A DNA stretch of 64,000 bases from a virus (Duplodnaviria; Heunggongvirae; Uroviricota; Caudoviricetes). Below are positions 1 through 56,016 of the stretch, one piece after another (position 1 is the first letter of the stretch; each line of letters opens with the position of its first letter). The stretch lies in IMG/VR virus record IMGVR_UViG_3300022746_000001. The stretch is one strand, 5' to 3'. Below the pieces are notes generated by a model. It did no database searches and was not told the DNA's origin. It saw nothing but the letters and a program-made list of their open reading frames with translations. Made by a program: the position numbers and the translations under genes.

Positions 1-239
1 TTTTTGTCGGTGATGCGGCCCAGATTAACCACCGGAACTTCGTCGTACCCCAGTGCTTTTGCGGCATCCCAACGGTGTTCACCGCCGATGATTTCAAGGG
101 CGCCGTCCGACTTCTCACGCACGACGATGGGTTTGAACATGCCGAAGCGCTTGACGCTTTCTTCGAGCTTGGATTGGTTCTCTGGCGACACGATGTTGGT
201 GTTCCAGGGGTTTGGACGCAGAGAGGCTGGATTCAGCAT
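1..239 (-). CDS. ParB-like nuclease/NTPase N-terminal domain protein (partial, C-terminus off window)
   Basis: minus-strand translation from ATG at 239: MLNPASLRPNPWNTNIVSPENQSKLEESVKRFGMFKPIVVREKSDGALEIIGGEHRWDAAKALGY; GGEHRW is the ParB/sulfiredoxin motif; absent from ORF track because it runs off the window. Confidence 0.6.
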   Translation of the reverse strand, partial: MLNPASLRPNPWNTNIVSPENQSKLEESVKRFGMFKPIVVREKSDGALEIIGGEHRWDAAKALGYDEVPVVNLGRITDK

Positions 240-299
240 CTCCACTTTGATTTTGCTTGCTTTGTGGTCAGCCACGGGATATTGCCTTATGGGGTGTTA

Positions 300-326
300 A
301 GTCACGACTGACTGAACTATAATCCT
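300..326 (+). promoter_or_regulatory. palindromic motif AGTCAC-GAC-TGACT followed by TATAAT, between divergent ParB-like and helicase genes
   Basis: read directly; member of repeated motif family. Confidence 0.5.
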
Positions 327-365
327 TATACAAAGACTTTGCAAGCCTTACAGAAGAGAAATTGG

Positions 366-1901
366 ATGACACAATCAGTAACCATCGCCTACAACGCAAC
401 CATTGCCAAATTGCATGAACCGACAAGACAAGCAAAACTGGCTGTGCAGCGGCTTGTTTCCTATCGCGTCGAAGGCGCAGAACACACCGGCGCGTTCAAA
501 ACCGGCAACTGGGATGGTCGCTCATCCTTCTTTGACTTCCGAAGCGGCACCTTTCCTGCTGGCTTCGTGAACTTTGTCGCCGCGCACCTCACCCGCGCCG
601 GCTACACCGTTCATCGCGTTCGAAAGCCCCTGCCCTTGCCACAAGGCCCAGAGAACCCAAAGGTCGATGAGTTTCCCGAAGACCCTCGCTACGACTATCA
701 GATGGAGGTAGTCAATCGGCTCTGCAAGCACGGCTCCATGATTGCGCAAGTAGCGACAGGTGGCGGTAAGTCTCGTATCGCGCGCCTGGCGTTCATGCGA
801 ATCAATCGCCCCACTCTGTTTCTGACAACGCGCGGCATTCTGATGTACCAAATGAAGGACACGTTCGAGACAGACCTTGGCGTGGCTTGCTCGGTGCTTG
901 GCGACGGTCAGTTTGGGCATGTCGGCCCCGACGGACGCCAGTACATTAAGAAAATGTCGGTGGGCATGGTGCAGACGCTGGTGTCGCGCCTTCAAGAGCC
1001 AAACCCCGACGATCCTGTGGACGTGCAAAACCGTCAGACCGCCATTCGCAACCAAACCATCGAGCTGCTTGGCAAATTCGAGTTCGTTATCGGCGAAGAG
1101 GCTCACGAAGCGTCGGGCAACAGCTATTACGAGATTCTGCGCCACTGCAAGAACGCTCACTACCGCTTGGCGCTAACTGCCACACCGTTCATGAAGGACG
1201 ACGAAGAGTCCAACATGCGTCTGATGGCTGCGTTCGGCCCTATCGGTATCAAGGTCACGGAGAAGATGTTGATCGACCGTGGCATCTTGGCGCGACCCAT
1301 CTTCAAATACCTGCCTCTGACCGTCAAACCCAACCACCTCATGCGCGGCGCCGGATGGCAAGCGGCGTACCGCCTTGGTATCGTTCAGAACGAGCAGCGT
1401 AACGGCATGATTATTGAAGAAGCCGCCCGCGCCGCGCGTTATGGCTTATCGACAATGATTCTCATCCAGCAAAAGAAGCATGGAGCGATTCTTGAGCAGG
1501 CGCTGAACGCGCGTGGTGTCAAAGCTCGGTTCATTGACGGTGACAGCGACCAAACAGAACGCAAACACGCGCTCAAGCAGCTCGCCAATCGTGAAATTGA
1601 TGTGCTGATAGGTTCGACAATTCTTGACGTTGGTGTAGACGTTCCTGCGGTCGGTATGGTGATCTTGGCCGGCGGCGGCAAAGCAGAGGTTGCCCTGCGT
1701 CAGCGTATCGGTCGCGGTCTGCGCGCCAAGAAGAAAGGCCCGAACATCGCCTTGATTGTGGACTTTGCCGATGACTTCAACATGCACCTGAAGTCTCATG
1801 CGCAGCAGCGCCACCAGATCGTGAAGGACACCGAGGGTTTCGGCGAGAATATCTTGAAGGCTGGCGCAGACTTTGACTACAAGGCTTTGGGGTTGATTTA
1901 A
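366..1901 (+). CDS. superfamily 2 DEAD/DEAH-type helicase
   Basis: VATGGGKS (Walker A), GEEAHEA (motif II), LTATPF (III), QRIGRGLR (VI); start moved to ATG 366 (track ORF begins at a TTG at 339). Confidence 0.8.
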   Translation: MTQSVTIAYNATIAKLHEPTRQAKLAVQRLVSYRVEGAEHTGAFKTGNWDGRSSFFDFRSGTFPAGFVNFVAAHLTRAGYTVHRVRKPLPLPQGPENPKVDEFPEDPRYDYQMEVVNRLCKHGSMIAQVATGGGKSRIARLAFMRINRPTLFLTTRGILMYQMKDTFETDLGVACSVLGDGQFGHVGPDGRQYIKKMSVGMVQTLVSRLQEPNPDDPVDVQNRQTAIRNQTIELLGKFEFVIGEEAHEASGNSYYEILRHCKNAHYRLALTATPFMKDDEESNMRLMAAFGPIGIKVTEKMLIDRGILARPIFKYLPLTVKPNHLMRGAGWQAAYRLGIVQNEQRNGMIIEEAARAARYGLSTMILIQQKKHGAILEQALNARGVKARFIDGDSDQTERKHALKQLANREIDVLIGSTILDVGVDVPAVGMVILAGGGKAEVALRQRIGRGLRAKKKGPNIALIVDFADDFNMHLKSHAQQRHQIVKDTEGFGENILKAGADFDYKALGLI

Positions 1902-2152
1902 TGTTGCAAAAACTGTGGCATGCCTTAGAATGTAAGTCATCAAAGACTTACTCCAAAGGTTCACACATGGGATATGCAATCGCTCTCAACCTTCTCATCA
2001 TCGCCTTCTTGAGTGGAGCGCTCTACCTCACAAGCAATCCGCTGGTGCTGTTCGGTCTGCTGCTCCTGAAAGAACTCCCTTATGGCTTGCTCGTACCGGA
2101 AGATGACGAGGAAGAAGGTAAACCTATGGGTTTCGTACACCCAGAAAAGTAA
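1901..2152 (+). CDS. small membrane protein (possible true start 1967)
   Basis: TAATG overlap with helicase stop; hydrophobic core AIALNLLIIAFLSGALYLTSNPLVLFGLLLL; acidic C-terminus. Confidence 0.4.
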   Translation: MLQKLWHALECKSSKTYSKGSHMGYAIALNLLIIAFLSGALYLTSNPLVLFGLLLLKELPYGLLVPEDDEEEGKPMGFVHPEK

Positions 2153-2261
2153 TACCTTTGAGTTGCAATCAAAACAAGTGCAACAAAAATCGTGCCAATT
2201 CTCAGAAAATAAGCGCGACGACCGTATAATCAAGCTCAGGATCATTTCTGAATACCTCCAT

Positions 2262-2288
2262 GCCCCGACACTCGGGGCTTTTTTTTGA
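2262..2288 (+). terminator. rho-independent terminator
   Basis: GCCCCGA-CACT-CGGGGC followed by T8. Confidence 0.7.
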
Positions 2289-2367
2289 ACTTTTTTGTTT
2301 GTATAAGGTTTGCGACAGTACAATACAACCATTCGCAATCATTTTGAAATTTTCACTGGAGAAAACC

Positions 2368-2646
2368 ATGCAAGAAGCTGAAGAAAAAGGCAAGCGCTAC
2401 GCTATCGTCGTCGAACAATCGGTACAGAACAAGCTGGCCGAGCTTGCCAAGCAGCACAAAATCTCTCAAGGCGCTGTTGTCGAAGAGTTGATGGGCTTGG
2501 TCAACACCGACGCACTGGCAAAAGCACTCGTTGCGCGCCGCGAACACAAGGTCTCAAACCGCAGCGGCAAGAGCGCAATCTTGAAGAAGCTCTCCAAGCT
2601 CAGTCCTGAGCAATTGGAAGCGCTGGCAGCTCAAATGAAGGTCTGA
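2368..2646 (+). CDS. ribbon-helix-helix-like DNA-binding protein (putative regulator)
   Basis: GGAGAAAACC RBS before ATG 2368; N-terminal beta strand KRYAIVVEQSV then helices, RHH-like. Confidence 0.5.
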   Translation: MQEAEEKGKRYAIVVEQSVQNKLAELAKQHKISQGAVVEELMGLVNTDALAKALVARREHKVSNRSGKSAILKKLSKLSPEQLEALAAQMKV

Positions 2647-2647
2647 C

Positions 2648-2812
2648 GTGACCTTAGAGACGTATGCGGGTGGGCCAGACGATCTGCCTACCTGCCCCAT
2701 CGACGGATGGCGGACTCAGACCATCGAGACCGACAAAGATGACGTGAACATCACGATCGAACTCTGTCCTCACTGTGGCAAGAAGTTTCGCTACATAGCG
2801 GAGGAAGAATGA
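2648..2812 (+). CDS. small zinc-ribbon protein (54 aa)
   Basis: GTG start 2 nt after upstream stop, ATGA overlap with next gene; CP...CPHCGKKF; below track size cutoff. Confidence 0.35.
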   Translation: MTLETYAGGPDDLPTCPIDGWRTQTIETDKDDVNITIELCPHCGKKFRYIAEEE

Positions 2813-3108
2813 ACACCCAAGACCAACCTAGCGCCCCCTCTTTTGAGTTTACGGGCGTTGCCAAGCGCAAGCTCGACGGCTTGCTGTCTGAAGGCTATGA
2901 GCTGAACGGCTACTGCTTTCAACAAACCTTAGAAGACGGAACCGTCAAGCGCGGAGCAATCACCGAGGGCGGAATGGTTCTTTGGTGGCACTCTGACCAC
3001 CCGCCTGTCAAGATTCCGTCTCGCATGACAGAAGACCCCTGCCCTGGCTGTCGCCCAGGCGTTGTCTGTCGCACCCCTCGCTGCGGACGACTCAAAACCC
3101 GCACCTAA
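2809..3108 (+). CDS. hypothetical Cys-rich protein
   Basis: ORF track; CPGCRPGVVCRTPRCG motif. Confidence 0.45.
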   Translation: MNTQDQPSAPSFEFTGVAKRKLDGLLSEGYELNGYCFQQTLEDGTVKRGAITEGGMVLWWHSDHPPVKIPSRMTEDPCPGCRPGVVCRTPRCGRLKTRT

Positions 3109-3126
3109 CACCCTCATAGCAGTGCC

Positions 3127-3369
3127 ATGACTGAAGCAGAAGACTGGGGCGAACTGTCCGAAGACGACATTCTGGAGCTTGTCGCGCCTACGCCCATACT
3201 GGTCGAACCCACAATTAACTACATCTGGGTGGCGCTCTACATAACGGAAGGTTGCAGCCTGCCCATGACCATGACTGGCTGCGACCGCAAACAAGTCATA
3301 AGTTGGGTGCGCGGCAGCTCCGCACTCGACCGAACCAAGCCAATTAAGCTGTACCGATTGGAATACTGA
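3127..3369 (+). CDS. hypothetical protein
   Basis: ORF track; same-strand operon context. Confidence 0.4.
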   Translation: MTEAEDWGELSEDDILELVAPTPILVEPTINYIWVALYITEGCSLPMTMTGCDRKQVISWVRGSSALDRTKPIKLYRLEY

Positions 3370-3578
3370 TGCCTGAACAACCACGCTATTGCTGCCACAA
3401 GTGTTTTCACAAAACAGGTGGCTTTCTTGACCGTATGCTGCTGTGCCCCGAGTGTGGCAACAAGCGCTGCCCCAAAGCGACCGATCACGATCTAGCCTGC
3501 ACGGACTCAAACGAGCCAGACCAGCCAGGCTCAATCTATGGTGGACGCCCCGTCGAGGGAGCAACCTCAGATGACTAA
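3369..3578 (+). CDS. hypothetical zinc-finger protein
   Basis: TGATG overlap with upstream; CCHKC...CPECGNKRC. Confidence 0.45.
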   Translation: MPEQPRYCCHKCFHKTGGFLDRMLLCPECGNKRCPKATDHDLACTDSNEPDQPGSIYGGRPVEGATSDD

Positions 3579-4053
3579 GAAGATCATCCTCAACGCCGCA
3601 GGCAAGGTCGAGCTAACCGTATGGCACAGCGGTTCAAACGTGTTCATCCAGCAGCCAGGCGCGGGACAGTCCTCGATGGACGTGCTGCTGCTGCCAGAAC
3701 TCATCAAGCAGCTTCAGAAAATCCAAAAAGAGACCATGCCGCTCCCACCCAGGAAGAACGACTGGAAAGAACTCGAAAAGACCTTCATGGACACCCAAGC
3801 GAGACTTCTGCAATGGGGACTGCAAGAGATACGGCTGCGAAGACAAGACCTGTCAAACCGAACAGAAGGCGGTCTGAAGATCGCGAAGCTGGCTGCAAAA
3901 TCACGACGCGAAGCCGCCGGCCTGACCGAAGCGGAAGCTGTGCTGTGGATGAAAGCTGCCCGTAAAGAGCTGGCAGACAGTCTCGTCAAAGAAGATGAGG
4001 CCCAAGCCACGATCAGCAGAGACGTTCCAGCCACAGACGAGGTGACATGGTGA
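3571..4053 (+). CDS. hypothetical protein
   Basis: GAGGGAG RBS before ATG 3571; ends ...DEVTW. Confidence 0.5.
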   Translation: MTKKIILNAAGKVELTVWHSGSNVFIQQPGAGQSSMDVLLLPELIKQLQKIQKETMPLPPRKNDWKELEKTFMDTQARLLQWGLQEIRLRRQDLSNRTEGGLKIAKLAAKSRREAAGLTEAEAVLWMKAARKELADSLVKEDEAQATISRDVPATDEVTW

Positions 4054-4211
4054 GCGACGCATGGAAACTCGGCAACCAAGCCGCATGGAGCTGGTGGGGA
4101 ACGCCACAACCACAAAACCCATTCACGGAAGGAACGCAAGAAGCAATCGACTGGGAAAAGGGTTTCGATATTGGCTGTGAAGACTATACGAACTGGTGGG
4201 AAAGCGAATGA
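4047..4211 (+). CDS. small Trp-rich protein (54 aa)
   Basis: ATGGTGA overlap with upstream stop; MVSDAWKLGNQAAWSWWG...NWWESE; below track cutoff. Confidence 0.35.
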   Translation: MVSDAWKLGNQAAWSWWGTPQPQNPFTEGTQEAIDWEKGFDIGCEDYTNWWESE

Positions 4212-4579
4212 GGGTTCTTGTCTGTGGCGGTCGCGATTACAGAGATTCTGCTTTCGTTAGTTTCGTTCTGGGCGTAATTCACGCAAAAAAATCAATCAAG
4301 CTGGTCATCCACGGTTGCGCACAAGGGGCAGACACCTTCGCAGAGCAATGGGCGTCTCAAATGAGCGATACGACAGCTTACGGTGTACCCGCAGACTGGA
4401 AGAAGCACGGTACGAGAGCTGGTCCCATCAGAAACAGGCTCATGCTGGAATTGGGCAAGCCAGATTTGGTCATTGCGTTCGAAGGCGGAGCTGGCACAAG
4501 GGACATGACGACTGCGGCGACAGCCGCTGGAGTGAAAGTCCTGTTTGCCGAGAAATTGCGACCACATTTCGAATCTTGA
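4208..4579 (+). CDS. DUF2493/SLOG-family Rossmann-fold protein (DprA/LOG-like)
   Basis: VLVCGGRDYRD...VIHGCAQGADTFAEQWA...GPIRNRLMLE...DLVIAFEGGAGTRDM matches SLOG/DUF2493 pattern. Confidence 0.6.
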   Translation: MRVLVCGGRDYRDSAFVSFVLGVIHAKKSIKLVIHGCAQGADTFAEQWASQMSDTTAYGVPADWKKHGTRAGPIRNRLMLELGKPDLVIAFEGGAGTRDMTTAATAAGVKVLFAEKLRPHFES

Positions 4580-4996
4580 GCCACTCAGCTCGAAATTTTT
4601 TGCTTGTATAAGGATAGACAATGTCCCCATCGGGTCATTTTTCTGTCGATCATGGGGATTTTGGTCAAAAATGTCCTCATCGGGGCATTTTCCATTGGGT
4701 CTTACGGATTCGGAGCCGGCTGTATAAGGACGTGAACTTAGGGTCTGCCTGGCTGTATAAGGGGCGCTAGGGGAGGTGGAAAACGAGGAAGGGGTCGCCT
4801 CCAAACCGAAGCACTTTTTCTAGGACTTCGGTATTATTTCTCCAATGTTTACTTTACGGTAAGCGCGTCATGCACTAACCACAAACAATAAACAAAACCT
4901 ATTGCAACCGCTGCACAATCAATTAAATCAATCATTGTTTAAACCTTGTTTGTTTGGTAAGTGGTGCAAGCTGTAACGCTTGCACCGTGTCACTCA

Positions 4997-5665
4997 TTAA
5001 GCATAGAACGCGATAACCGCGCGCGCTGCGTCATTCTCTCGCATTGTGATTGCATCATTGTTTTTTTGCTTGATAACGTTCGCAAGGTTCAACGCTTTGA
5101 GCATCATACGTGTGCTGCTTGCTTGAGTGCTTGCAGTTGATTCGCTGCAATTGTGCAAGCGTTTGAGCGTTTGCACTTGCTCTGTCTCGCTGTATTCGAT
5201 TGATTTACAAATGCTCATGCGTGATTCTTTGTTATTGATTGTTTGCAGCTTAACCAGATTAAACAAAATCGAGTTAGTGTAACCATCAAAACCAGAACGC
5301 GCATTGTTTGCAATTGCGTAAAGCGCTTTGCGTACTTTTTGCAGTGCATACACTGCGAGAAAATCATTTTTTGATTCTGTCTTCAATACTGCTATTTGAC
5401 GCGCAAGCGCTTGCAAATCAATTTTGAGCGCTTCGCACTTGCTCAGAATTACCGCTGCGTTTGCATCGTCAAAAAAACGATATTCTGCTGTGAGCGTGTC
5501 ACGCTGGTTATCATTGTCTGCGTTTTCAATTCTGCGTTTGATAGCTGCTAAAATTGCGGTTTGTGCTGCTGCTGCTGTGTCTGCTGCTGCTGTAGTTGCA
5601 ACCTTGCTTTGCTTTGCTTTTTTAGCTGCTGTAGTTGCTGCTGTGTTTGCGTTTGCTTTGCTCAT
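4997..5665 (-). CDS. hypothetical protein with Ala/Lys/Thr-rich histone-H1-like N-terminus
   Basis: AAAGGTGAAAAC RBS before ATG 5665; low-GC codon usage unlike neighbours. Confidence 0.5.
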   Translation of the reverse strand: MSKANANTAATTAAKKAKQSKVATTAAADTAAAAQTAILAAIKRRIENADNDNQRDTLTAEYRFFDDANAAVILSKCEALKIDLQALARQIAVLKTESKNDFLAVYALQKVRKALYAIANNARSGFDGYTNSILFNLVKLQTINNKESRMSICKSIEYSETEQVQTLKRLHNCSESTASTQASSTRMMLKALNLANVIKQKNNDAITMRENDAARAVIAFYA

Positions 5666-5859
5666 GTTTTCACCTTTAAAAGTTTGGTTTTTGAAACTCA
5701 ATCAAAATCAATTGAGTGAACGTAGTATAAACCAAAAAACAATCAAAAACCACGCAAGCACAAAAAAAAGTTGATTGTTTTTTTAAATCGCCATCATAGC
5801 TAAAAACAATCACACAAAATGCTTGTTTTGTGGTATACGTGAAAAACAATCAAGTCTCC

Positions 5860-6200
5860 TATAAGACAGGAGACAACTCTCCTAGGAGACAGGACATGGG
5901 TCTCCTATAAGACATAAGACAGGAGACAGGATGCGGACGATTCTCATTTAGGCGCCGATGCGGATGATCCGCATTTGCGATGCCGACTCCAGCTCCGACC
6001 CACGCACTGCCCTCTAACCTCCTAGGCAGCCCCAACCAGAGTCCATGCCGTACTCCATGCTCCTAGGCAAGTCCAACCAAAGCCCCTGCCGTACCCAATG
6101 GCGATGAGTACCAGTGTCCTACCCGTACCCAACCAGTGTTCGACCCGTTCCTAGGCGTCATCACGCTGCATAAAAGGGTGTGAAATCCATTCACACCCCC
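5860..6200. repeat. repeat-dense non-coding block: TCTCCT...AGGAGA palindromes, ATGCGGA-TG-ATCCGCAT palindrome, 33-bp imperfect direct repeats starting CCTAGGCA, CTGCCGTACCCAATGG copies
   Basis: read directly. Confidence 0.7.
6165..6198 (-). terminator. rho-independent terminator
   Basis: GGGTGTGAA-ATCCA-TTCACACCC then TTTTAT on minus strand. Confidence 0.5.
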
Positions 6201-6211
6201 TGCTCTATCCG

Positions 6212-6388
6212 TTAACGCTCGTCGTACAGGCGAGGTGTTCGGCGTACCGAGTGACCCTGACGCAGCATCTCTAGCTCCACGTCTTCTTGCATTTGGTCGT
6301 AGAAGTCTTCCTGGTCGTCGAATCGCTCGACAAATTGGAAGGTGTTGTTCTCTGTTGGCACAGGGTTAGTTTGAGCAATGCGTGACAT
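6212..6388 (-). CDS. small acidic protein (58 aa)
   Basis: AGGAG RBS 7 nt before ATG; MSRIAQTNPVPTENNTFQFVERFDDQEDFYDQMQEDVELEMLRQGHSVRRTPRLYDER; followed by hairpin terminator; below track cutoff. Confidence 0.45.
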   Translation of the reverse strand: MSRIAQTNPVPTENNTFQFVERFDDQEDFYDQMQEDVELEMLRQGHSVRRTPRLYDER

Positions 6389-6406
6389 GAGGTACTCCTG
6401 AAGCGG

Positions 6407-6661
6407 TTATTGCTTTGCGCTTGGTGTGGGGTACTGCATGCCGAACTCATCGGTTCGCTCGTCGTCTAGATCGCTATGCCCAAGAACATGCAAGCAATTG
6501 AGAATGGACGACATAGTGAATCCACCAGCGACATACAGACCGAACAACCACAGAGCGCCACCTCCATGTTGTTCAATTGCTTTGATGCAGGCGTATGCGA
6601 TTGCGGAACAGACCGTGATGGTCATTAAGGTGAGAACATAAACAGTTTGGCGATTGTTCAT
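6407..6661 (-). CDS. small membrane protein (2 TM)
   Basis: ORF track; hydrophobic segments. Confidence 0.5.
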   Translation of the reverse strand: MNNRQTVYVLTLMTITVCSAIAYACIKAIEQHGGGALWLFGLYVAGGFTMSSILNCLHVLGHSDLDDERTDEFGMQYPTPSAKQ

Positions 6662-6868
6662 GATTGTCTTTCATTTGTTGCACTCAAAATCGAGTAAATG
6701 AATTACATCATATAAAACAATCAAAAACCGCATGCCTAGATGATTGCCTGAAAGATCGCCTGCACTGGCCTAGGCGTCTTTTGGCCTACAGGTCAATGCT
6801 TACGGCCTAGGGGAATGTGTGGCCTGTGGCCTGAGAACCGAGCCTATCACTCGCTCGGTTTCTGTGGC

Positions 6869-7087
6869 CTACTCGTCGTCGAGATTCACGTAGTCAGGGG
6901 CATCCTGACGCTCAACCACGCGAATCGTCACACCTTCACAGACCGTTTCCAAGACGCTCTTGGTCGTTCTAACCAGCGCATCGAACGCTTCCTGCTCTAT
7001 GCGCTCGTCACGATTGTTCAAGGTCGCAAGCACTTGGAAGTCACCATCATCGCGGTCAAAGCCTATTGAAACGACTTCATGTGTCAT
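6869..7087 (-). CDS. hypothetical protein
   Basis: GGAG RBS, ATGA overlap with upstream gene. Confidence 0.5.
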   Translation of the reverse strand: MTHEVVSIGFDRDDGDFQVLATLNNRDERIEQEAFDALVRTTKSVLETVCEGVTIRVVERQDAPDYVNLDDE

Positions 7088-7335
7088 TGCGCACTCCAGT
7101 TCTTTTGATGCTCTTCCAACTTGATGGTCAGCGCGTAGATTGCTTCAAGCATTAGGGGAACAATATCAGCGCTTGCTTTCTTCGCTTTTTCCAAGCACTC
7201 AATTGCGTAATTAGGTGTGAAGAAGTAGATGGAGGATTCGTCAGCGTGATGCGAATCTTCGCCAAAACAATTGATAACCACACACAGGAGGTCTGCTTCG
7301 TCGTCGGTAAGGTTGCACTTGTCCAAGATGTTCAT
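7084..7335 (-). CDS. hypothetical protein
   Basis: ORF track; preceded by ACTCgattttGAGT palindrome element. Confidence 0.5.
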   Translation of the reverse strand: MNILDKCNLTDDEADLLCVVINCFGEDSHHADESSIYFFTPNYAIECLEKAKKASADIVPLMLEAIYALTIKLEEHQKNWSAQ

Positions 7336-7389
7336 GATGGTTTTGCGTTGTCACTCAAAATCGAGTGATTGAACTATAAGCGCAAAAAT

Positions 7390-8640
7390 CACTGCCTAAT
7401 CATGCTCGGTTCAATTCCCCTATAAGGTGTCCAATTCATGCTTTTCTCCTAGGGAGTTTCTTTTTAGGGGCAAACCTTATAGGGCAATGCCTAGGCAAAC
7501 TTATAGGAGTAGGCAAGCGAGCCTAGGCGAGCTTATACATTGGCAGAGCTTCCTAGAGTCTCCAATTGGCATTACCAGTGCCGCAGCCGTACCCAGTGGA
7601 TGAAAAGCCATCAAGGACATACCAGTCAGACAGCCGTACCCAATGGGTCAGTCCCTAGGGGTTTTGGATGCTTCGGACGCCGCGACTGGTCACGCTTTCT
7701 AGGCTTGGTCTCCTGTCTGCGAGTAGGCATGACGCCGATCCTGGGCTTTTGCCTAGGGACTTTGATGATGATCGTTTCTTTGGACATGCTCGAATTGTAG
7801 GGCGAAATTTCTTGTATAAGATTCGCCGCCGACTGCGTTAAATGATGAAGGGAATACTTCCCCCCAAACCTTATACATCTTTCCTAATTTTTCTTTTCCT
7901 ACTCTCTATCTACATACCTATACCTGAAGTTCTTCTTCCTAGCTTTTTATCATTCATTCTTCTATTCATCCTATGATTCATCCGTATGGTAGTTGTGGTC
8001 GTAGTCCTAGTCTTTATGCGGGTTCTTCGTTTCCGTGTCCGTCGTTTTGCTATTCATCTATCTATTCATCCTCTTAGCTGTTCCGATGTAGTTTGTGGTT
8101 GATTTTGTGCCTGTTCTTTTCTTAGCTGTTGTCGGTTCGGTTTGCTTTGGATTGTTTGTTCTTAGTTGTTTTGGGTGCCGAGTGTGTAAAGTTTGGGAAA
8201 GTTCTTCTTTACGTTTCTTGGGTTCTTTTTGGGGATGTGGGCAATTTCGGTCTGGCGTATATTTATATTTATTGCTTTTAAGGCTTATAGATTAAATGTC
8301 GCGGGATGGAAGAAAGCCTGACTCTGGCCTACGGGAGTTTGCTTACACTTTTCGGCCTCTGATTGTTCTCGGCCTCGTGTTTGATGCTTACGTGTTTTGG
8401 ACGGTCTCTTTAAACGACTTTTGAGCGCTTTTCCTGTGCTTGCTTAGTCGGTGGTATCAATGCTTGTTTGGCAGCGTTTTTGAGGTCGTTTTGAGTGCTT
8501 GGCCTATGGTCGTTTTTGCTTGCGTTTGTTTACATCAAAAAAGCTCAATTCCTGACAACTCAGGTGTCAGTTAGTGGTTGATGGGTCTTCCTCAAAAGTG
8601 GCGTTTTCCTGTTTAAAATCAATGACTTACGCCAAGGGGA
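7390..8640. repeat. non-coding region with CTTATA(G/C) iterons (7400-7860), CCTAGG-rich repeats, then T/G-rich direct repeats (7860-8640)
   Basis: read directly; no convincing ORFs. Confidence 0.65.
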
Positions 8641-8646
8641 CGAATT

Positions 8647-8682
8647 GTATACAAATAACCCCTAACTCGTAGGGGTTATTGA
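8647..8682. terminator. bidirectional hairpin terminator
   Basis: AACCCCTA-ACTCG-TAGGGGTT then TTTTT on plus; ATTTGTAT on minus. Confidence 0.5.
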
Positions 8683-8701
8683 GTGTTTTTGTACTCGATT
8701 T

Positions 8702-9154
8702 TTAGGCGATTTTTAGGTCGTTTTGAGACGCTGCCAAAGTCGGTGTTTTTTGGCTTTTTTGGAGCTTTTCTAGCTGCTGTTCACAGTAGATTCGGACACC
8801 GTCACGAGCAGCCTGCGGGCTGTGATTTTGAAGTGTGTTGTCGTGGATTTCTTGGATCATCTTCAGCTCCGAGACTTTCATGCCTGTCACGGTTTCGACG
8901 TTACGCTTGCCTAAGAAGTCTTTGGCGACATAGTCGATAGCTGATTCGTTGTAGCCTGCTTCGTCGATTGATTTCAGTTGGGTTTTGCTGAACAGCGAGC
9001 CTACCGCGCAGTTGTTGCCTGAAGCGTATAGGTACTCGCAACCTCCATCTTCCCCTTCTCTCTTAGGGCCAATCTTCTTCAAATTTGCCTGTTGAATGAT
9101 GTGTCGCAGGCTTTCTTCGCGTGTTCGGCATTCGACTCCGTTGATGATTTGCAT
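8702..9154 (-). CDS. hypothetical protein
   Basis: AAGGAG RBS before ATG 9154 (internal M of track ORF). Confidence 0.5.
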   Translation of the reverse strand: MQIINGVECRTREESLRHIIQQANLKKIGPKREGEDGGCEYLYASGNNCAVGSLFSKTQLKSIDEAGYNESAIDYVAKDFLGKRNVETVTGMKVSELKMIQEIHDNTLQNHSPQAARDGVRIYCEQQLEKLQKSQKTPTLAASQNDLKIA

Positions 9155-9177
9155 GATGGGTACTCCTTTGGTGTTAC

Positions 9178-9510
9178 TTAGTTGCCGATTGATTCGTAGT
9201 GCTGGATGAGGTGGTTGAGCCAAGCGTGTCTTGTCGCCTGAATCTTCTTCGGGTCGCGGAAGTTGCCATTTATCATGTAAAGGTCTTCCATACGACAGTG
9301 CTTATTGGCGACTAGCCAATCTTCGAGCGTAGTGTGGCCGTTGAGCAGTTCGGAGATGACATGCTTGGCTGCATAGATTCTGTCGTCATGGAGCGGGTGC
9401 CGAGCGAACAGTCGATTGATGGCGTGACAAACAAACTTTGGCTGATATGGTTGTCCGAAACCATTCCAAAGTTCGTATTTGGCTTCGCGGAAGATTTGAC
9501 TGAGTTTCAT
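9178..9510 (-). CDS. hypothetical protein (paralog of 17391-17729)
   Basis: MKLSQIFR...HAWLNHL...IGN resembles MKLSTIFR...HAWLESL...IGD. Confidence 0.55.
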   Translation of the reverse strand: MKLSQIFREAKYELWNGFGQPYQPKFVCHAINRLFARHPLHDDRIYAAKHVISELLNGHTTLEDWLVANKHCRMEDLYMINGNFRDPKKIQATRHAWLNHLIQHYESIGN

Positions 9511-9968
9511 TCTGCCGCCTCCGTCTTTGCCTTTTGCAGCCAAAAGATCATGGGCTTTGGGTCATACGTTGGCAGCTTCATGCCGTAGGCTATTCGAGTG
9601 AAGCAATGCCAGGGCGACTCCCCTTCATCAGAGCGTTCGGCATCACAGGGGACATTGCCTCGAACCTTATAGAGTGGGCAGGCTTCGCAGAAGACCTCGT
9701 CTCCATCTTCGTTTTCAGTGGTGGCGTCATCCGTATGGTGAAGAAGGCATAGGGCGCAGCTTTCGCTGTAGATGTAGAGATTAGGCGGATCGTATCGGTC
9801 GCCGTCCAAGTCAATTACCATTTGGTCAAGCATCGTGCATCGGTGTTTGGCGAGGTTTTCAGGCAGCAGGCCCAACCACTTCTGTAGGCTGTGGTCGATT
9901 GCGTCCTTTTTGCTTACCTTGCTTGCCTCAATCGGATAGAACTCCGCTTTCCATGTTTCTAAGCTCAT
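9507..9968 (-). CDS. hypothetical Cys-rich protein
   Basis: AAGGAG RBS; CALC...CEAC motifs. Confidence 0.55.
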   Translation of the reverse strand: MSLETWKAEFYPIEASKVSKKDAIDHSLQKWLGLLPENLAKHRCTMLDQMVIDLDGDRYDPPNLYIYSESCALCLLHHTDDATTENEDGDEVFCEACPLYKVRGNVPCDAERSDEGESPWHCFTRIAYGMKLPTYDPKPMIFWLQKAKTEAAE

Positions 9969-9991
9969 GGGGTACTCCTTTGGTATTGCTT

Positions 9992-10210
9992 TTACTCGTC
10001 TGCCGGCGGATTGACGGGGCTACCCATCCAATTCAGCTCTAGCCTGATGTAGTTGTTGAAGTGGGCGCGAACCTCGTCACCCTCCACCCCTGAGAAGAAC
10101 ATGCCTGCAACACCGCCATCCGACACTTCGAGCTTTTGCTGAATTGCGAGACAGGCGGCGTTGAGCGCGTCTTCGGCCAAGTCTTCGATTTCTTTTGCGG
10201 ACAATGTCAT
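9992..10210 (-). CDS. hypothetical protein
   Basis: AGGAG RBS. Confidence 0.45.
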   Translation of the reverse strand: MTLSAKEIEDLAEDALNAACLAIQQKLEVSDGGVAGMFFSGVEGDEVRAHFNNYIRLELNWMGSPVNPPADE

Positions 10211-10213
10211 TCG

Positions 10214-10414
10214 TTACTCCTGTATGTCTTTCACTGATGACTTAGTTTCGCAAGCGAGTGATGGACTTGCAATCGTTCCTATCACTACGCCTGGATATAT
10301 CCCATGACTCTCTGCATGGTGGCGCTTCATGGCGTCCGTGATGAATCCAGGCTGATTGACTTGGTCTGCCCATGATTTGCCATTTCGAATGGCGTTTGGA
10401 TCACACATTCCCAT
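10214..10414 (-). CDS. hypothetical protein
   Basis: GGAGG RBS before internal ATG; overlaps upstream gene stop. Confidence 0.4.
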   Translation of the reverse strand: MGMCDPNAIRNGKSWADQVNQPGFITDAMKRHHAESHGIYPGVVIGTIASPSLACETKSSVKDIQE

Positions 10415-10598
10415 GTCTGCCTCCGCTTGGTGGTAAAGGCACATCGCCTGTCTTCTCACAGTACGTCATGCACGCCTGTTCGCTTTCATGGCGCATGACA
10501 CTCAAATGCCCCTGCGGGTTGTAGCTTGACCACTGAGTTGGATGCGTCAGTGTTGGCAGCGTTTTACCAGCTCGTTCTTGGTGCCAAGTCGTCATCAT
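10401..10598 (-). CDS. hypothetical protein
   Basis: GAGGAGG RBS directly upstream; coupled to flanking genes. Confidence 0.4.
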   Translation of the reverse strand: MMTTWHQERAGKTLPTLTHPTQWSSYNPQGHLSVMRHESEQACMTYCEKTGDVPLPPSGGRHGNV

Positions 10599-10954
10599 CC
10601 CCTCCTCATGCGCGCCATTTCGGTCGCTTCTTCAGTGCTGAACACAGGCACGGCATTGCTCTTGTGGAGTGTGCCAATGCCGATCATCTTGGTTCCTGTG
10701 TAGCGTCGGCCAATCACAGGTTTAGTACCGCCTGTAGCGCCGGTGTCCAATGACTTGAACTCATGTCCTGTACTGCGCCCAGGCGGTGTCGTGAGCTTTG
10801 GCAGTGCGCTTGTAACATTGGCCTTGCATGTAACATCGCCAATGTTAGAACGTGAAAACTTTGGGACACTCGCCCATTTGCGTTGTAAAGCATCGAACGC
10901 TTCCATCGCCTCGCGTTCAGCTTTGGTTGGGTTGCGGCGCTTTTTCATGCTCAA
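10595..10954 (-). CDS. hypothetical protein
   Basis: GGAG RBS. Confidence 0.5.
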   Translation of the reverse strand: MSMKKRRNPTKAEREAMEAFDALQRKWASVPKFSRSNIGDVTCKANVTSALPKLTTPPGRSTGHEFKSLDTGATGGTKPVIGRRYTGTKMIGIGTLHKSNAVPVFSTEEATEMARMRRG

Positions 10955-11295
10955 TACTCCGAAGGCAGAAGCAGCACGGCGTCAATGAGGTAGAAACTCC
11001 AAACGCCTTCTGGACAATCGGTAAAGTCGATTTTCTTTTCCCAAGACGTGTTGCCGTTTCCATCTTCGACCACAATGGTCGCCTTACCGTCTTTGGAGAC
11101 CAGCTTCACTGCTGCGAACTCATGACCTTGAGGCATGACCTCGGTGCCGACAATATCCAGAAACCAGTACGCTCCAGCGTTCTGTGCAAAATACCGCACG
11201 CCATCGGTGTATGTCATGGCGGTGATATTGTGCTTCCACCACTGTTCGGTGCCTGTGAAGTGTGCGAGTCCAGATTTAAGTTCTTGGGTGTTCAT
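10951..11295 (-). CDS. hypothetical protein
   Basis: RBS AAAGGATGAGCA; palindromic motif upstream. Confidence 0.55.
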   Translation of the reverse strand: MNTQELKSGLAHFTGTEQWWKHNITAMTYTDGVRYFAQNAGAYWFLDIVGTEVMPQGHEFAAVKLVSKDGKATIVVEDGNGNTSWEKKIDFTDCPEGVWSFYLIDAVLLLPSEY

Positions 11296-25843: not shown

Positions 25844-25989
25844 TGCTTTTTACCTTCCAACTGTTGTTTCTTTTGCTCTAGCTCTTTCATGTGAGCGTCC
25901 AGCTCCTTCCACTTCTTCTCAGTGTGGAGCTGGTGAGCGCGACTGCCAGGCATCAGGGCGATGCCCTGATAGATGATTGCGCCTCTCAT
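25840..25989 (-). CDS. small Lys-rich coiled-coil protein (49 aa)
   Basis: ATGA overlaps with both neighbours; weak RBS. Confidence 0.3.
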   Translation of the reverse strand: MRGAIIYQGIALMPGSRAHQLHTEKKWKELDAHMKELEQKKQQLEGKKQ

Positions 25990-26273
25990 GCTGCTGCGGC
26001 GACAAGCGGCACTACAGATGCTGCAAACATCACCGACTGAGGGCGACCGCTTTCACCCTTGCGAGTGCCAGAACGGTGCATGAGCTTCTTCTTCTCCAGC
26101 GTCGTGTAGCGCGCCGTTACGGATGAATAAGCGAGTGTTGGGAAGTGCGAACGCACCTCGTCGGAAATGCAGCCTCGAACGCCGTAGCTTGCGATGACCT
26201 TCAGGACTTCCGTCTCTAAATGGTTCGTATCTACGGATTTCAGGGCAGCCATTGATGTTGCAACTGAGGGCAT
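25986..26273 (-). CDS. putative winged-helix DNA-binding protein
   Basis: wHTH-like segment LKVIASYGVRGCISDEVRSHF...YTTLEKKKLM. Confidence 0.45.
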   Translation of the reverse strand: MPSVATSMAALKSVDTNHLETEVLKVIASYGVRGCISDEVRSHFPTLAYSSVTARYTTLEKKKLMHRSGTRKGESGRPQSVMFAASVVPLVAAAA

Positions 26274-33056: not shown

Positions 33057-33140
33057 AGATTTCTCCGGTAGTTAAGTCACTAATGACTTTGAGATTATAG
33101 AGAGCGAAAACTTATAGAAGACGGCAATGCGTCAAGTCCC

Positions 33141-33175: not shown

Positions 33176-33263
33176 TGGCGGAAGCGGTGAGATTCGAACT
33201 CACGGAACCTTGCGGTTCGACTGGGTTCAAGCCAGTTGCCATAGACCACTCGACCACACTTCC
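33176..33263 (-). tRNA. tRNA-Ser (anticodon UGA), CCA encoded
   Basis: long variable arm; anticodon loop CTTGAAC; T-arm GGTTCGAATCTC. Confidence 0.8.
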
Positions 33264-33270
33264 TAAATCT

Positions 33271-33355
33271 TGGTGCCCAGAGTCGGACTCGAACCGACAC
33301 GCCTCGCGGCGACGGCTTCTGAGGCCGTTGCGTCTACCAATTTCACCACCTGGGC
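33271..33355 (-). tRNA. tRNA-Leu (anticodon CAG), CCA encoded
   Basis: anticodon loop CTCAGAA; long variable arm; T-loop GTTCGAGTC. Confidence 0.8.
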
Positions 33356-33356
33356 T

Positions 33357-33432
<76 letters not shown>

Positions 33433-33535
33433 ATCATGAATGAAGGCTTTCGTCCAGCTCGGGATAGGTCGGTAGTTAGCCGTTTCAGTTTCACCCGTCC
33501 CCTGGGAATCGAACCCAGAAGCCTTCATTCATGAT
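33433..33535 (-). other. about 100-nt element with 15-bp terminal inverted repeats containing a tRNA T-arm-like hairpin (tRNA-like fragment / structured RNA / miniature insertion)
   Basis: ATCATGAATGAAGGC ... GCCTTCATTCATGAT flank CTGGGTTCGATTCCCAG (minus strand) and tandem TGAAAC repeats; no complete cloverleaf found. Confidence 0.35.
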
Positions 33536-33610
33536 GGTGCCGCCTTGAGGAATTGAACCCCAGACCTTCTGCTTACAAGGCAGCTGCTCTACCAACTGAG
33601 CTAAGGCGGC
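33535..33610 (-). tRNA. tRNA-Thr (anticodon UGU), CCA encoded
   Basis: GCCGCCTTAGCTCAGTTGGTAGAGC; anticodon loop CTTGTAA; 7-bp acceptor stem. Confidence 0.75.
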
Positions 33611-33614
33611 TTAA

Positions 33615-33691
33615 TGGTCGGAGATGCAGGATTCGAACCTGCGACCCTCTGCTCCCAAAGCAGATGCGCTACCAGACTGCGCTAATCTCCG
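33615..33691 (-). tRNA. tRNA-Pro (anticodon UGG), CCA encoded
   Basis: CGGAGATTAGCGCAGTCTGGTAGCGC; anticodon loop TTTGGGA. Confidence 0.8.
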
Positions 33692-33695
33692 ATAC

Positions 33696-33770
33696 TGGTA
33701 CTCGGTGCGGGAATCGAACCCGCCTTACCGCCGTGAAAGGGCGGTGTCCTAACCGATAGACGAACCGAGC
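33696..33770 (-). tRNA. tRNA-Glu (anticodon UUC), CCA encoded
   Basis: anticodon stem-loop CCGCC-CTTTCAC-GGCGG; T-arm GCGGGTTCGATTCCCGC. Confidence 0.75.
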
Positions 33771-33861
33771 GTTCCATCAAGTCTGTTCTCTCGTGGGTCA
33801 AGCTACTCCTTTGCCGTCAAGAGGCTTGTTTCACCATTCCTCTTAGAGAGGACAGACTTCA

Positions 33862-33937
33862 TGGCTCCCCAGGGTGGGTTCGAACCACCGACACATGGAT
33901 TAACAGTCCATTGCTCTACCAACTGAGCTACTAGGGA
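33862..33937 (-). tRNA. tRNA-Asn (anticodon GUU), CCA encoded
   Basis: TCCCTAGTAGCTCAGTTGGTAGAGC; anticodon loop CTGTTAA. Confidence 0.8.
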
Positions 33938-34034
33938 ATGACGGTGCGTATGGAGTTGTACCCCAGACGTTTGTCGGCTTTTATAGTCCCCACACCTTTA
34001 GGACTACCGTGTCTCTGTTCTTCTTGCAAGAAAC

Positions 34035-34111
34035 TGGTTGCGGGGGCAGGACTCGAACCTGCGACCTCTGGATTATGAGTCCAGCGCTCTAACCTACTGA
34101 GCTACCCCGCT
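34035..34111 (-). tRNA. tRNA-Met (anticodon CAU; elongator or Ile2-type), CCA encoded
   Basis: anticodon loop CTCATAA; A1xA72 unpaired; no GGG/CCC initiator anticodon stem. Confidence 0.7.
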
Positions 34112-34170
34112 TCAATCTTTCAATGTATGAATCTTATATAAGTTTTCGCGGGTTTGCAAGTCACCACTGA

Positions 34171-36860: not shown

Positions 36861-36937
36861 AAAACTCCTTGTTGTGTTGTTAATTTGGGGGACGGTGATT
36901 CTATTGCAGTCACGAGTGACTTACCATATAAGGACGA

Positions 36938-37417
36938 CTACCAAGTGTCCGATTCGGTAGTTGGGGTATCTGGACTGCGCGGCACTTCTGACTCCAGTGG
37001 CGCGCTGTCAGTTGGAATGAGGCTCATGAGTTGCATGTCGTCGGTCTTGATGCGGGTGTAGCTGAATACGCCACCTCGTCTGTATAAGGTTTCGTTCTTA
37101 CAGCGAATTTGGACTTGATCTGTCTGTCCGCAAGAGACGCAATACTGCTTGGTCATGCGCTCCAAGTTCTCTTGCTCGTCAACCTTGATGCTCGAACAGC
37201 CCTCACATTCCGGTACGTCTTTTCGGAGCGTATGAGTGATCTTGAGGCGCGCAGATTCCGGAAACTTGGACTGCATCGCTTCAAGGCTGCTTACTTCGAA
37301 GAAGAACTTCTTGTTGCAAAGGCGATTGGGCGTCACCTCTTCCGTCTCGTACTTAATTGTTTCGTAGTCCACAAGCGCGTTGTAGCGCTGCGACATGCCT
37401 ACAGAATGAAACGCCAT
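36938..37417 (-). CDS. hypothetical zinc-finger protein
   Basis: CEGC...CVSCGQ; ends ESDTW. Confidence 0.5.
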   Translation of the reverse strand: MAFHSVGMSQRYNALVDYETIKYETEEVTPNRLCNKKFFFEVSSLEAMQSKFPESARLKITHTLRKDVPECEGCSSIKVDEQENLERMTKQYCVSCGQTDQVQIRCKNETLYRRGGVFSYTRIKTDDMQLMSLIPTDSAPLESEVPRSPDTPTTESDTW

Positions 37418-42619: not shown

Positions 42620-42966
42620 TACTCAACTCTCCTTAGACCGACCACCGTGAAAATCTTTGACGGATTGACAATGTGCGGCCCATAAATTTTCAAAATCGTC
42701 TTGTAGAGGCTCTCTGACGGATTCTCGGACTTAGTCGCAAGCTCCGTGTGATTCTGAGAGGCGTACAAGACACACATTTCACTCAAGGTTCCTGAATCGA
42801 CGTAGGTGACTTTCGCCATGCCGATCACAGCCTTCTTTTTCTCATCCATGAGAAGAACATCTTCACCTTCAGGCAGCTTGCTTAACTTGCGCCCCATGCG
42901 AAAGGTGTTGAACTCTCCATCAATGCCGACAACCGGCGGGATGAAACCAATAACTTGGATTTCCAT
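42619..42966 (-). CDS. hypothetical protein
   Basis: AGGGAG RBS before internal ATG. Confidence 0.5.
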   Translation of the reverse strand: MEIQVIGFIPPVVGIDGEFNTFRMGRKLSKLPEGEDVLLMDEKKKAVIGMAKVTYVDSGTLSEMCVLYASQNHTELATKSENPSESLYKTILKIYGPHIVNPSKIFTVVGLRRVE

Positions 42967-43023
42967 ATAGCTCCCTATAAGTTTTGTTTGCGAGAACAAA
43001 AGTATAGGGAGCCAGTTCTTACC

Positions 43024-55569: not shown

Positions 55570-56016
55570 ATGGCTATCACTAAAGCTGTGCGAGTCACTC
55601 CACCGACCGCAAGTAAGCCGAAGAATGTTGCCGAATACATATCGTGGCAGATCAACCTGTGTGGCAAGAAGCAAATCGAAATCGCTGAAGAAGTCGGCTT
55701 TGATAAGCCGAACGTCATCACAATGATTAAGCAGGGAAAGACCAAGGTTCCGATCAACAAGATTGGAAAAATGGCGAAAGCACTCAATGTTGACCCCATC
55801 TTCTTCTTGAGGATGTGCATCAATGAGTACATGCCAGACATGATGGAAGCCATTACCGCCATCATAAACCAACCCGTTTTTACGGCCAATGAAATTGATT
55901 TCATTGAGGAAATGAGAGCTTCGAAGATAGTTAACCCGAAGCTGGAGACCAAAGATGATCGCGCCAGATTCAGGGAGTTCTTGAAGACACTGAAAAGCGA
56001 CAATGGCGGAAACTGA
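55570..56016 (+). CDS. XRE-family helix-turn-helix transcriptional regulator (repressor-like)
   Basis: HTH QIEIAEEVGFDKPNVITMIKQGKT; GGGAGAAAG RBS; AT-rich divergent promoter region upstream. Confidence 0.7.
   Translation: MAITKAVRVTPPTASKPKNVAEYISWQINLCGKKQIEIAEEVGFDKPNVITMIKQGKTKVPINKIGKMAKALNVDPIFFLRMCINEYMPDMMEAITAIINQPVFTANEIDFIEEMRASKIVNPKLETKDDRARFREFLKTLKSDNGGN

Follow-up and report, generated by a model that had tools for sequence, protein, structure and literature searches.

Genes and relatives of the window

We analyzed a 64-kb stretch, referred to here as the window, of the Caudoviricetes record IMGVR_UViG_3300022746_000001, in which a short asymmetric DNA motif with the core TATAAGG recurs. 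The window is part of a large phage of about 112 kb that is related to SSU5, Stenotrophomonas phage BUCTxx99, and Rhizobium phage RHEph10. Its plus-strand module (366-4579) begins with the gene for a UvsW/DEAD-type helicase (phrog_16, E 1e-99) and ends with that for a YspA/SLOG protein, and a ParB-like gene at 275 is divergent from this module. Beyond about 5 kb, almost all of the genes are on the minus strand and include those for p222, DNA polymerase, ribonucleotide reductase, SbcC, UvsX, CobS/CobT-like proteins, ligases, primase, and an integrase. One 112-kb contig on record encodes a protein identical to p222.

By helicase comparison (45 to 51% identity), the nearest named relatives are Stenotrophomonas phages BUCTxx99 and ANB28, Xanthomonas phage JGB6, the RHEph10-like Rhizobium phages, and the SSU5 phage-plasmid group, and the gene order around the helicase is common to the window, BUCTxx99, and SSU5. 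A megablast search found no close DNA relatives among GenBank phages. Closer relatives were found only as metagenomic viral contigs of about 100 to 113 kb and as contigs of Betaproteobacteria-labeled metagenome-assembled genomes (MAGs; Paraburkholderia, Castellaniella, and Oxalobacter), and these MAG records suggest that the hosts are Betaproteobacteria. The group appears to integrate rather than to be maintained as a plasmid, given the integrase gene and the finding of homologous loci on MAG contigs of 450 to 700 kb. We compared the motif pattern in L012 (also L002), L014 (also L003), and about 25 further loci. L012 and L014 share about 67 to 78% DNA identity with the window in coding parts; in both, the motif persists at the corresponding sites, whereas the noncoding DNA around it has diverged.

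A short asymmetric motif is enriched in noncoding DNA

The motif, whose recurrence had been pointed out in an earlier note on this DNA, is more common than chance predicts. The exact 9-mer CCTTATACA, whose other-strand reading TGTATAAGG is the strongest form of the motif, has seven matches in the window (0.14 expected; none of 100 shuffles reached 7), at 324(+), 2300(-), 4605(-), 4721(-), 4754(-), 7869(+), and 37081(-). The 12-mer AAACCTTATACA, with at most one mismatch, occurs 4 times where 0.13 would be expected; for the core TATAAGG the count is 13 (1.8 expected) and for TATAAG 27 (8.3 expected), with 15 of the 27 falling within the first 8.3 kb (325-8289). A chance origin of the motif is excluded. 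The conserved core is TATAAGG rather than the 12-mer, and the sites are nonpalindromic and clustered in noncoding DNA and at promoters (Table 1).

The individual sites named in that note fared less evenly. The site at 2296 (2296-2311) and three copies in 4606-4760 (within 4605-4762) were found as described, and the first site, placed at about 312, is real but lies some 10 nt away, at 321-332. The claim of at least six copies in 7400-7860 stands only for a degenerate core, with TATAAG at 7421(+), 7476(-), 7500(-), 7532(-), and 7815(+); for the exact 9-mer it fails, since the sole nearby copy is just outside, at 7869-7877. Of two distant sites, the one given as 37085 is an exact copy at 37081, antisense in a predicted coding region, whereas that given as 36920 has the TATAAGG core alone, at 36927. 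The clustering in noncoding DNA and at promoters also stands, but not its restriction to the plus-strand module, because the sites border the minus-strand early genes too.

Table 1. Motif sites and associated features of the window (ORF, open reading frame)
Feature	Position	Strand	Remarks
TGTATAAGG site	324-332	-	Exact match; 90-bp divergent intergenic region, ParB-like gene/helicase
Sigma70-like promoter TTGCAA-17-TATAGT toward ParB-like operon	316-344	-	Promoter scan
TGTATAAGG site	2300-2308	+	Exact match; promoter of small DNA-binding-like gene (2368-2643), after strong terminator 2262-2286
Putative promoter TTGTTT-18-TACAAT	2295-2324	+	Read from sequence; -10 aligned in L012 and L014
First copy after plus-strand module	4605-4613	+	Exact match; conserved context TCGAAATTTTTTGCTTGTATAAGGAT
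Tandem pair GGCTGTATAAGG, 33 bp apart	4721-4729 and 4754-4762	+	Exact matches; conserved in relatives
Strongly conserved G-rich block GGAAAACGAGGAAGGGG	4778-4794	+	Alignments across 17 loci
Hairpin ACCGAAG...CTTCGGT, loop with conserved word TCTAGGAC	4805-4832	+	Alignments across 17 loci
p222, conserved uncharacterized 222-amino-acid protein	5000-5665	-	Candidate binder, overlooked by the earlier note
Three 23-bp units, GTCTCCTATAAGACAGGAGACA or CCTAGG variant	5854-5921	+	Repeat family D3; upstream of p222; two carry TATAAG (5860, 5906)
Array of four degenerate copies	7417-7540 (TATAAG 7421-7537)	both	Includes inverted pair I13
Array copy CCCCTATAAGGT	7417-7428	+
Array copy CCCTATAAGGTT	7473-7484	-
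Array copy TCCTATAAGTTT	7497-7508	-
Array copy ATGTATAAGCTC	7529-7540	-
Face-to-face pair TGTATAAGA/TGTATAAGG	7813-7821/7869-7877	+/-	Upstream of small ORF 7626-7787(-)
TATAAG copy	8284-8289	-	Upstream edge of T-poor noncoding stretch (minus strand, 7878-8283)
TATAAGG core alone, no exact 9-mer	36927
Isolated exact TGTATAAGG copy	37081-37089	+	Antisense within predicted ORF 36938-37417(-)

Single copies lie in promoter spacers

Two of the exact copies are located within promoters. The copy at 324 occupies part of the 17-bp spacer of the promoter facing the ParB-like operon, directly after a TATAAT (318-323, plus strand) that is likely the -10 of the helicase promoter. Its bases are invariant in L012 and L014 (alignment A1), and the core CCTTATA is kept in L015 to L021 and in L024; when the sequence was read directly, relatives were found to have TTGCCA-17-TATAGT with TATAAGG in the same spacer. 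The copy at 2300 overlaps the spacer of the putative promoter of the small gene, and in L015 to L017 the core is in the middle of the spacer of near-consensus promoters (TTGATC, TTGAAC, or TTGACT-16-TATAAT, that is, TTGAYY-16-TATAAT). The close clade as a whole has one minus-strand copy about 42 bp before the helicase start and one plus-strand copy about 1.9 kb past it, before the small gene. Thus, orthologous promoters keep the motif while their flanks diverge (alignments A1 and A2), and this extends to the close clade.

TATAAG and the -10 hexamer are a variable distance apart (3, 6, 7, or 11 nt), and therefore the motif is not a fixed promoter element.

A conserved tandem module follows the plus-strand module

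In all clades, the plus-strand module is followed by a plus-strand tandem pair to quadruplet of the motif (2 to 4 copies, 30 to 37 bp apart, typically about 33). The pair belongs to a larger module with the order nTATAAGG(A), about 26 nt holding GGnCnGCCTGG, nTATAAGG, 23 to 24 nt, GGTCGGAACGAGGAAGG, about 28 variable nt, and TCTAGGACTTCG in a hairpin with a variable stem. Both order and spacing are retained down to about 50% helicase identity. The GC skew of 4700-4799 is +0.38, and 4800-4999, which is also the 3' untranslated region of p222, has 39% GC. RNAalifold found no consensus structure for the module on either strand, and at the gathering threshold Rfam matched only eight tRNAs in the window, with only subthreshold chance matches in 4400-8800. 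The module is therefore conserved at the DNA level.

Other functions for the module were considered and rejected. A structured small RNA or riboswitch does not fit because there is no conserved fold and the hairpins are variable in register and missing from L024 and L055. A phage attachment site does not fit either: the integrase gene lies 51 kb away, and in L006, a locus on a 450-kb MAG contig, the module is intact with the same neighbors on both sides. Readings of GGCTG...TATAAGG and GGAAC...TCCAAA as sigma54 or sigmaE promoters failed a by-eye check for spacing or conservation.

Between the first and second TATAAGG (4618-4700) there are also two copies of AATGTCC(C/T)CATCGGG(T/G)CATTTT(T)C, about 56 bp apart; L012 keeps this pair, and L014 and L021 keep it more loosely.

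At the same junction, BUCTxx99 has a different triple repeat, TGTATGGAG (three copies of the word CCTGTATGGAG), and a protein that is not homologous to p222, while SSU5 has CCGTTTCCC repeats.

p222 is linked to the tandem pair

The tandem module is always 150 to 400 bp past the stop codon of the convergent p222 gene. An exact tandem pair with copies 30 to 37 bp apart was present in 24 of 29 p222-bearing sequences, and three more had a TGTAAGG variant, which is seen in L029, L030, and L043. Well-covered loci without p222 are also without the tandem pair. The two remain together in L024, L037, and L055, where the SLOG gene is missing or the small gene is largely gone, and in L009, where the pair and p222 lie as a unit on the other side of the helicase. 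In the window, the p222 gene is flanked by motif sites, with the tandem module on one side and the TATAAG-carrying D3 units on the other.

p222 belongs to PHROGs of unknown function. It had no match in Pfam, NCBIfam, or PDB sequences, Foldseek with the p222 model returned nothing significant, and we detected no homology with the BUCTxx99 protein at the same position. The model has a helical N-terminal part followed by a C-terminal helix-helix-beta-hairpin (residues 160 to 208), which is the only winged-helix-like unit. The most conserved stretch, nearly invariant, is STASTQASSTR (residues 176 to 186), which runs from a loop into the start of the helix before the hairpin and can still be made out in the homologues that have diverged furthest, which without exception have TATAAGG pairs. 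That this helix is a recognition helix matched to the conserved DNA word is a reasonable but unproven idea.

L024 (IMGVR_UViG_3300044806_000242) has two p222 paralogues and a plus-strand module that is cut to the helicase gene and one gene for a small membrane protein. In the 21.5 kb covered, its small DNA-binding-like gene is a C-terminal remnant only, and its TATAAGG count, 17, is the highest.

Arrays around the early genes are phased on the DNA helix

Further right, the close clade has minus-strand arrays upstream of small early minus-strand genes. Arrays homologous to that at 7417-7540, with three to nine copies of (Y)CC-TATAAG-GTT, are found in L012, L014 to L016, and L018, and the 23-bp D3 units are also present in L012 and L014, in either orientation. 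Across loci, the distances between same-strand neighbors peak at 12, 22 to 23, and 32 to 35 bp. Half of these distances (61 of 122) are within 1.6 bp of a multiple of 10.9 bp, where 29% were expected, and the phasing has a resultant length of 0.39 at a period of 10.5 bp, a value to which no exact probability attaches because the sequences are related.

The array copies are interleaved with a 6-bp palindrome, which is CCTAGG in the window, L012, L014, and L022 to L024 and CCATGG in L015 to L018. All 11 copies of CCTAGG in the 64 kb are within 1.9 kb (5881-7752). From this pattern, the palindrome may be a second site that has changed in step with its protein.

On the minus strand, the TATAAG at 8284 is followed at once by an ORF-free, T-poor stretch of about 400 nt (7878-8283) in which the plus-strand AT skew goes down to -0.66. 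It holds six GGATGAAT(A) repeats, which we take to resemble the GGA binding sites of CsrA/RsmA, and it may be a phage sponge RNA. A comparable T-poor run comes after TATAAGG in L012, L015, L016, and L018.

Other repeats in this region are six copies of ACCAGTG...CCGTACCCA(A/G)TGG at 6012-6151 and 7573-7646 (families D2 and D6), with GGGATGGGATGG-type repeats in the counterpart places of BUCTxx99. Furthermore, the early minus-strand genes p222, p84, and p83 are each preceded by AAAACAATCAAAAACC and a small hairpin, CACTC-GATTTT-GAGTG, in the 5' leader (5685-5756, 6685-6734, and 7338-7374; families D5, D7, D9, and D11).

The motif as the proposed site of a phage-encoded DNA-binding protein

Because the sites are nonrandom, nonpalindromic, clustered, conserved at homologous positions, and spaced at multiples of about 10.5 to 11 bp, we read the motif as the recognition site of a phage-encoded, sequence-specific DNA-binding protein, in which single copies are operators, phased arrays are assembly sites, and p222 is the most likely binder. 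We hold this reading as a whole with moderate confidence. Features of this kind, dispersed and clustered asymmetric operator or iteron-like sites, are known; here they occur in an unstudied phage group. The earlier note had read the motif as an iteron origin or an operator array, and of this the pattern expected of protein sites (nonrandom, conserved, and phased) held up, while searches for DnaA boxes and Rep homologues and the skew gave no sign specific to an origin.

In the mechanism that we propose, a protein bound in the promoter spacer would exclude RNA polymerase from the divergent promoters of the ParB-like and helicase genes and from the small-gene promoter, and single spacer copies would therefore act as operators, that is, in repression. 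Copies on the same helix face (about 12, 22, or 33 bp apart), on both sides of p222 and upstream of the early genes, would allow cooperative assembly. The larger nucleoprotein complex would then govern this early or regulatory region, perhaps through DNA loops that join arrays some 2.7 kb apart. The binder would be p222, representing a new family with a winged-helix-like C terminus.

Several observations weigh against this interpretation. A single asymmetric site of 7 to 9 bp is short for stable binding by one protein. The invariant tandem pair is located downstream of p222, whereas a simple autoregulator would usually have such sites at its own promoter, and p222 and the motif may be linked by synteny alone, with both inherited in one block. 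In addition, the core promoters of the early genes lie outside the arrays. Lastly, the motif is absent from the helicase and small-gene promoters of distant clades, so an operator role is documented for the close clade only.

Two known systems invite comparison. The operators of the phage P1 C1 repressor are asymmetric 17-bp sites scattered over the genome. The sites described here resemble them in being nonpalindromic, in lying within core promoter regions, and in belonging to a large temperate phage that has them both as clusters and as lone copies at several promoters; they differ in having a core of 7 to 9 bp and helically phased arrays. p222 showed no similarity to C1 in these searches, none of which was a direct comparison with C1 itself, and a lysogeny-repressor role is unsupported. 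The "stoperators" bound by gp71 of mycobacteriophage L5 are likewise a short asymmetric site for a phage protein that is repeated many times in intergenic DNA. In contrast to these, the sites here are mostly within 8 kb rather than across all operons and are in both orientations.

A replication origin as an alternative

The locus could instead be an iteron-type origin or copy-control locus, a possibility that we regard as unlikely. p222 would then be a new initiator that binds the tandem repeats beside the G-rich block, the hairpin, and the AT-rich DNA at 4800-4999, and the upstream and downstream arrays would act like incC and incA of P1. The layout is favorable, with two to four direct repeats at a spacing of about 33 bp beside the gene for a winged-helix-like protein and sites on both sides of that gene. 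Three direct repeats in one orientation are present (4605, 4721, and 4754, plus strand), with a short unit (a core of 7 to 9 bp, about 13 to 20 bp with flanks). Relatives with as little as about 50% helicase identity still share the fixed-spacing module as DNA sequence, the module leads into the 39% GC segment, SSU5 and BUCTxx99 carry different triple repeats at the same junction, and the adjacent module opens with a UvsW-like helicase gene. Theta-replicon iterons, such as those of P1 incC-repA-incA and lambda ori with O, share with this locus the direct repeats at whole turns flanking a gene of winged-helix type, the AT-rich stretch, and the hairpin.

They differ from it in several of the points that count against an origin. 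The core of 7 to 9 bp compares with 17 to 22 bp in classical iterons. No DnaA box (TTWTNCACA) was found in 1-11000, and the sole match in the 64 kb is at 11183. In neither sequence nor fold does p222 resemble Rep, pi, RepE, or lambda O among the listed matches, and searches of the window found no Rep homologue, Rep-type (WH1-WH2) initiator, or lambda O-type neighbor gene. Copies in the spacers of unrelated promoters are atypical of iterons and are more simply explained as operators, and the GC skew signal is inseparable from gene orientation. Nor is the motif itself a DnaA box, as it reads TTATACA(A/G/T)N with conserved bases extending 5' (CC), and no site in the region fits TTWTNCACA.

A more far-reaching version is that the tandem repeats, the G-rich block, the hairpin with TCTAGGAC in its loop, and p222 together form the origin and initiator of the widespread SSU5-related phages of about 110 kb, with a new winged-helix initiator family and a new mechanism. 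Replication might in that case be primed by an R-loop from a G-rich transcript under the control of the UvsW-like helicase, and the promoter copies might couple replication to early transcription. Taken as one package, we judge this to be quite improbable.

A promoter element or a centromere as alternatives

There is also a slim chance that TATAAGG is a -10-like element of a special class of phage promoters. These would direct transcription of the small-gene and ParB-like operons, of the T-poor RNA (8283-7878), and of a short RNA through the G-rich block. TATAAG is one base from TATAAT, the orientation of single sites agrees with the downstream gene at 325(-), 2302(+), and 7870(-), and five phages have a copy right at the upstream edge of the T-poor stretch. 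The differing base, though, is a G at position 6 in place of the last T of the -10, and this T is critical for sigma70. Both promoters have better -10 hexamers 3 to 11 nt downstream, no -35 is conserved at a fixed distance, and no phage sigma factor was identified. Furthermore, up to nine copies occur 12 to 34 bp apart, with both orientations within one array, which a promoter element would not explain.

The last alternative, that the sites form a partition centromere or are global regulator sites for the ParB-like protein or the small protein, like KorB OB sites or the omega and ParR arrays, seems to us very doubtful. It draws on the single copies in the promoters of the ParB-like operon and of the small gene, on the phasing of the arrays, and on the presence in the family of phage-plasmids such as SSU5. 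The ParB-like genes, which in relatives form an operon with an AAA ATPase gene, adjoin the 324 site, while the arrays are not adjacent to them. The small protein (92 amino acids) weakly resembles the SopB centromere-binding helix-turn-helix (PF18090, E 7.6e-5), but this Pfam match is under the curated cutoff, and the match to SopB in the PDB has an E value of 0.6. BUCTxx99 and SSU5 have both the ParB-like and the small gene but are without the tandem pair and arrays, whereas L024 keeps its 17 sites with no more than a remnant of the small gene in those 21.5 kb. The evidence for integration rather than plasmid maintenance also speaks against a centromere.

The small-gene promoter, moreover, has inverted repeats of its own that are specific to each clade, with TTGCGA (2310-2315) and TCGCAA (2333-2338) flanking the 2295-2324 promoter in the window, CAGCA...TGCTG in L015 to L017, and ACGTG or GCATGC types in distant clades. 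These are more likely to be the operators of the small protein itself. The earlier note had named the small protein as a possible ribbon-helix-helix binder of the motif. The weak SopB-like matches do not confirm that fold, and with the inverted repeats and the situation in L024 they weaken its candidacy. Two other possible binders that it had put forward, the XRE gene (55570-56016) and the winged helix-turn-helix gene at 26 kb (25986-26273), have no motif sites nearby.

Short-repeat arrays are also bound by plasmid regulators that double as centromere proteins, such as the omega heptads of pSM19035, ParR/parC of R1, and TubR/tubC. Compared with these, there is no partner NTPase gene beside p222, most repeats are 22 to 33 bp apart rather than contiguous, and no candidate has a confirmed ribbon-helix-helix fold.

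Significance for the SSU5-related phages

Members of the SSU5-related group, phages and phage-plasmids alike, are common in Enterobacteria, Xanthomonadaceae, and Rhizobia and apparently also in Betaproteobacteria. We found nothing in the literature on regulation or the start of replication in them, and a search on SSU5 regulatory repeats gave nothing relevant. The present analysis defines for them a conserved cis-element, its placement in two promoters, a tandem module of fixed spacing, and a candidate binder from an uncharacterized family. The different triple repeats and adjacent proteins that relatives have at one junction offer a natural system for studying how protein and DNA-site specificity change together. 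If the module were an origin or maintenance site, it would aid typing and possibly incompatibility grouping.

Additional features of the window

A homologue of the small gene follows the helicase gene in nearly all of the relatives, probably including BUCTxx99 (marginal match, E 0.06).

A second motif, GTCA-N4-TGACTTA, is much more frequent, with 17 exact copies against 0.04 expected. Its sites include 298-312, 12536, 14518, 16546, 20893, 26288, 27501, 33073, 34160, 36909, 38717, 41778, 45878, 46784, 52921, and 60759. Read in the direction of the genes, it is TAAGTCA-N4-TGAC and is often directly followed by a -10-like hexamer (TGCAAT, TACAAT, or ATATAAT). The palindrome is conserved family-wide at the helicase promoter, where relatives have a -10-like TTATACT after it. 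The motif seems to define a class of promoters with a palindrome in place of the -35, used for most of the minus-strand replication and metabolism genes.

The eight tRNA genes form a minus-strand cluster at 33176-34111 (Ser, Leu, Trp, Thr, Pro, Glu, Asn, and Met) that is flanked by palindrome-type promoter motifs and by TATAAG at 33111 and at 34133/34137. At 33111 the arrangement is TATAAG-N11-TATAAT, the same layout as in the promoter at 2302. Finally, between the UvsX-like gene and the next gene (42960-43010), there is a perfect-looking hairpin, CTCCCTATAAGTTTTGTT...AACAAAAGTATAGGGAG, that contains TATAAG.

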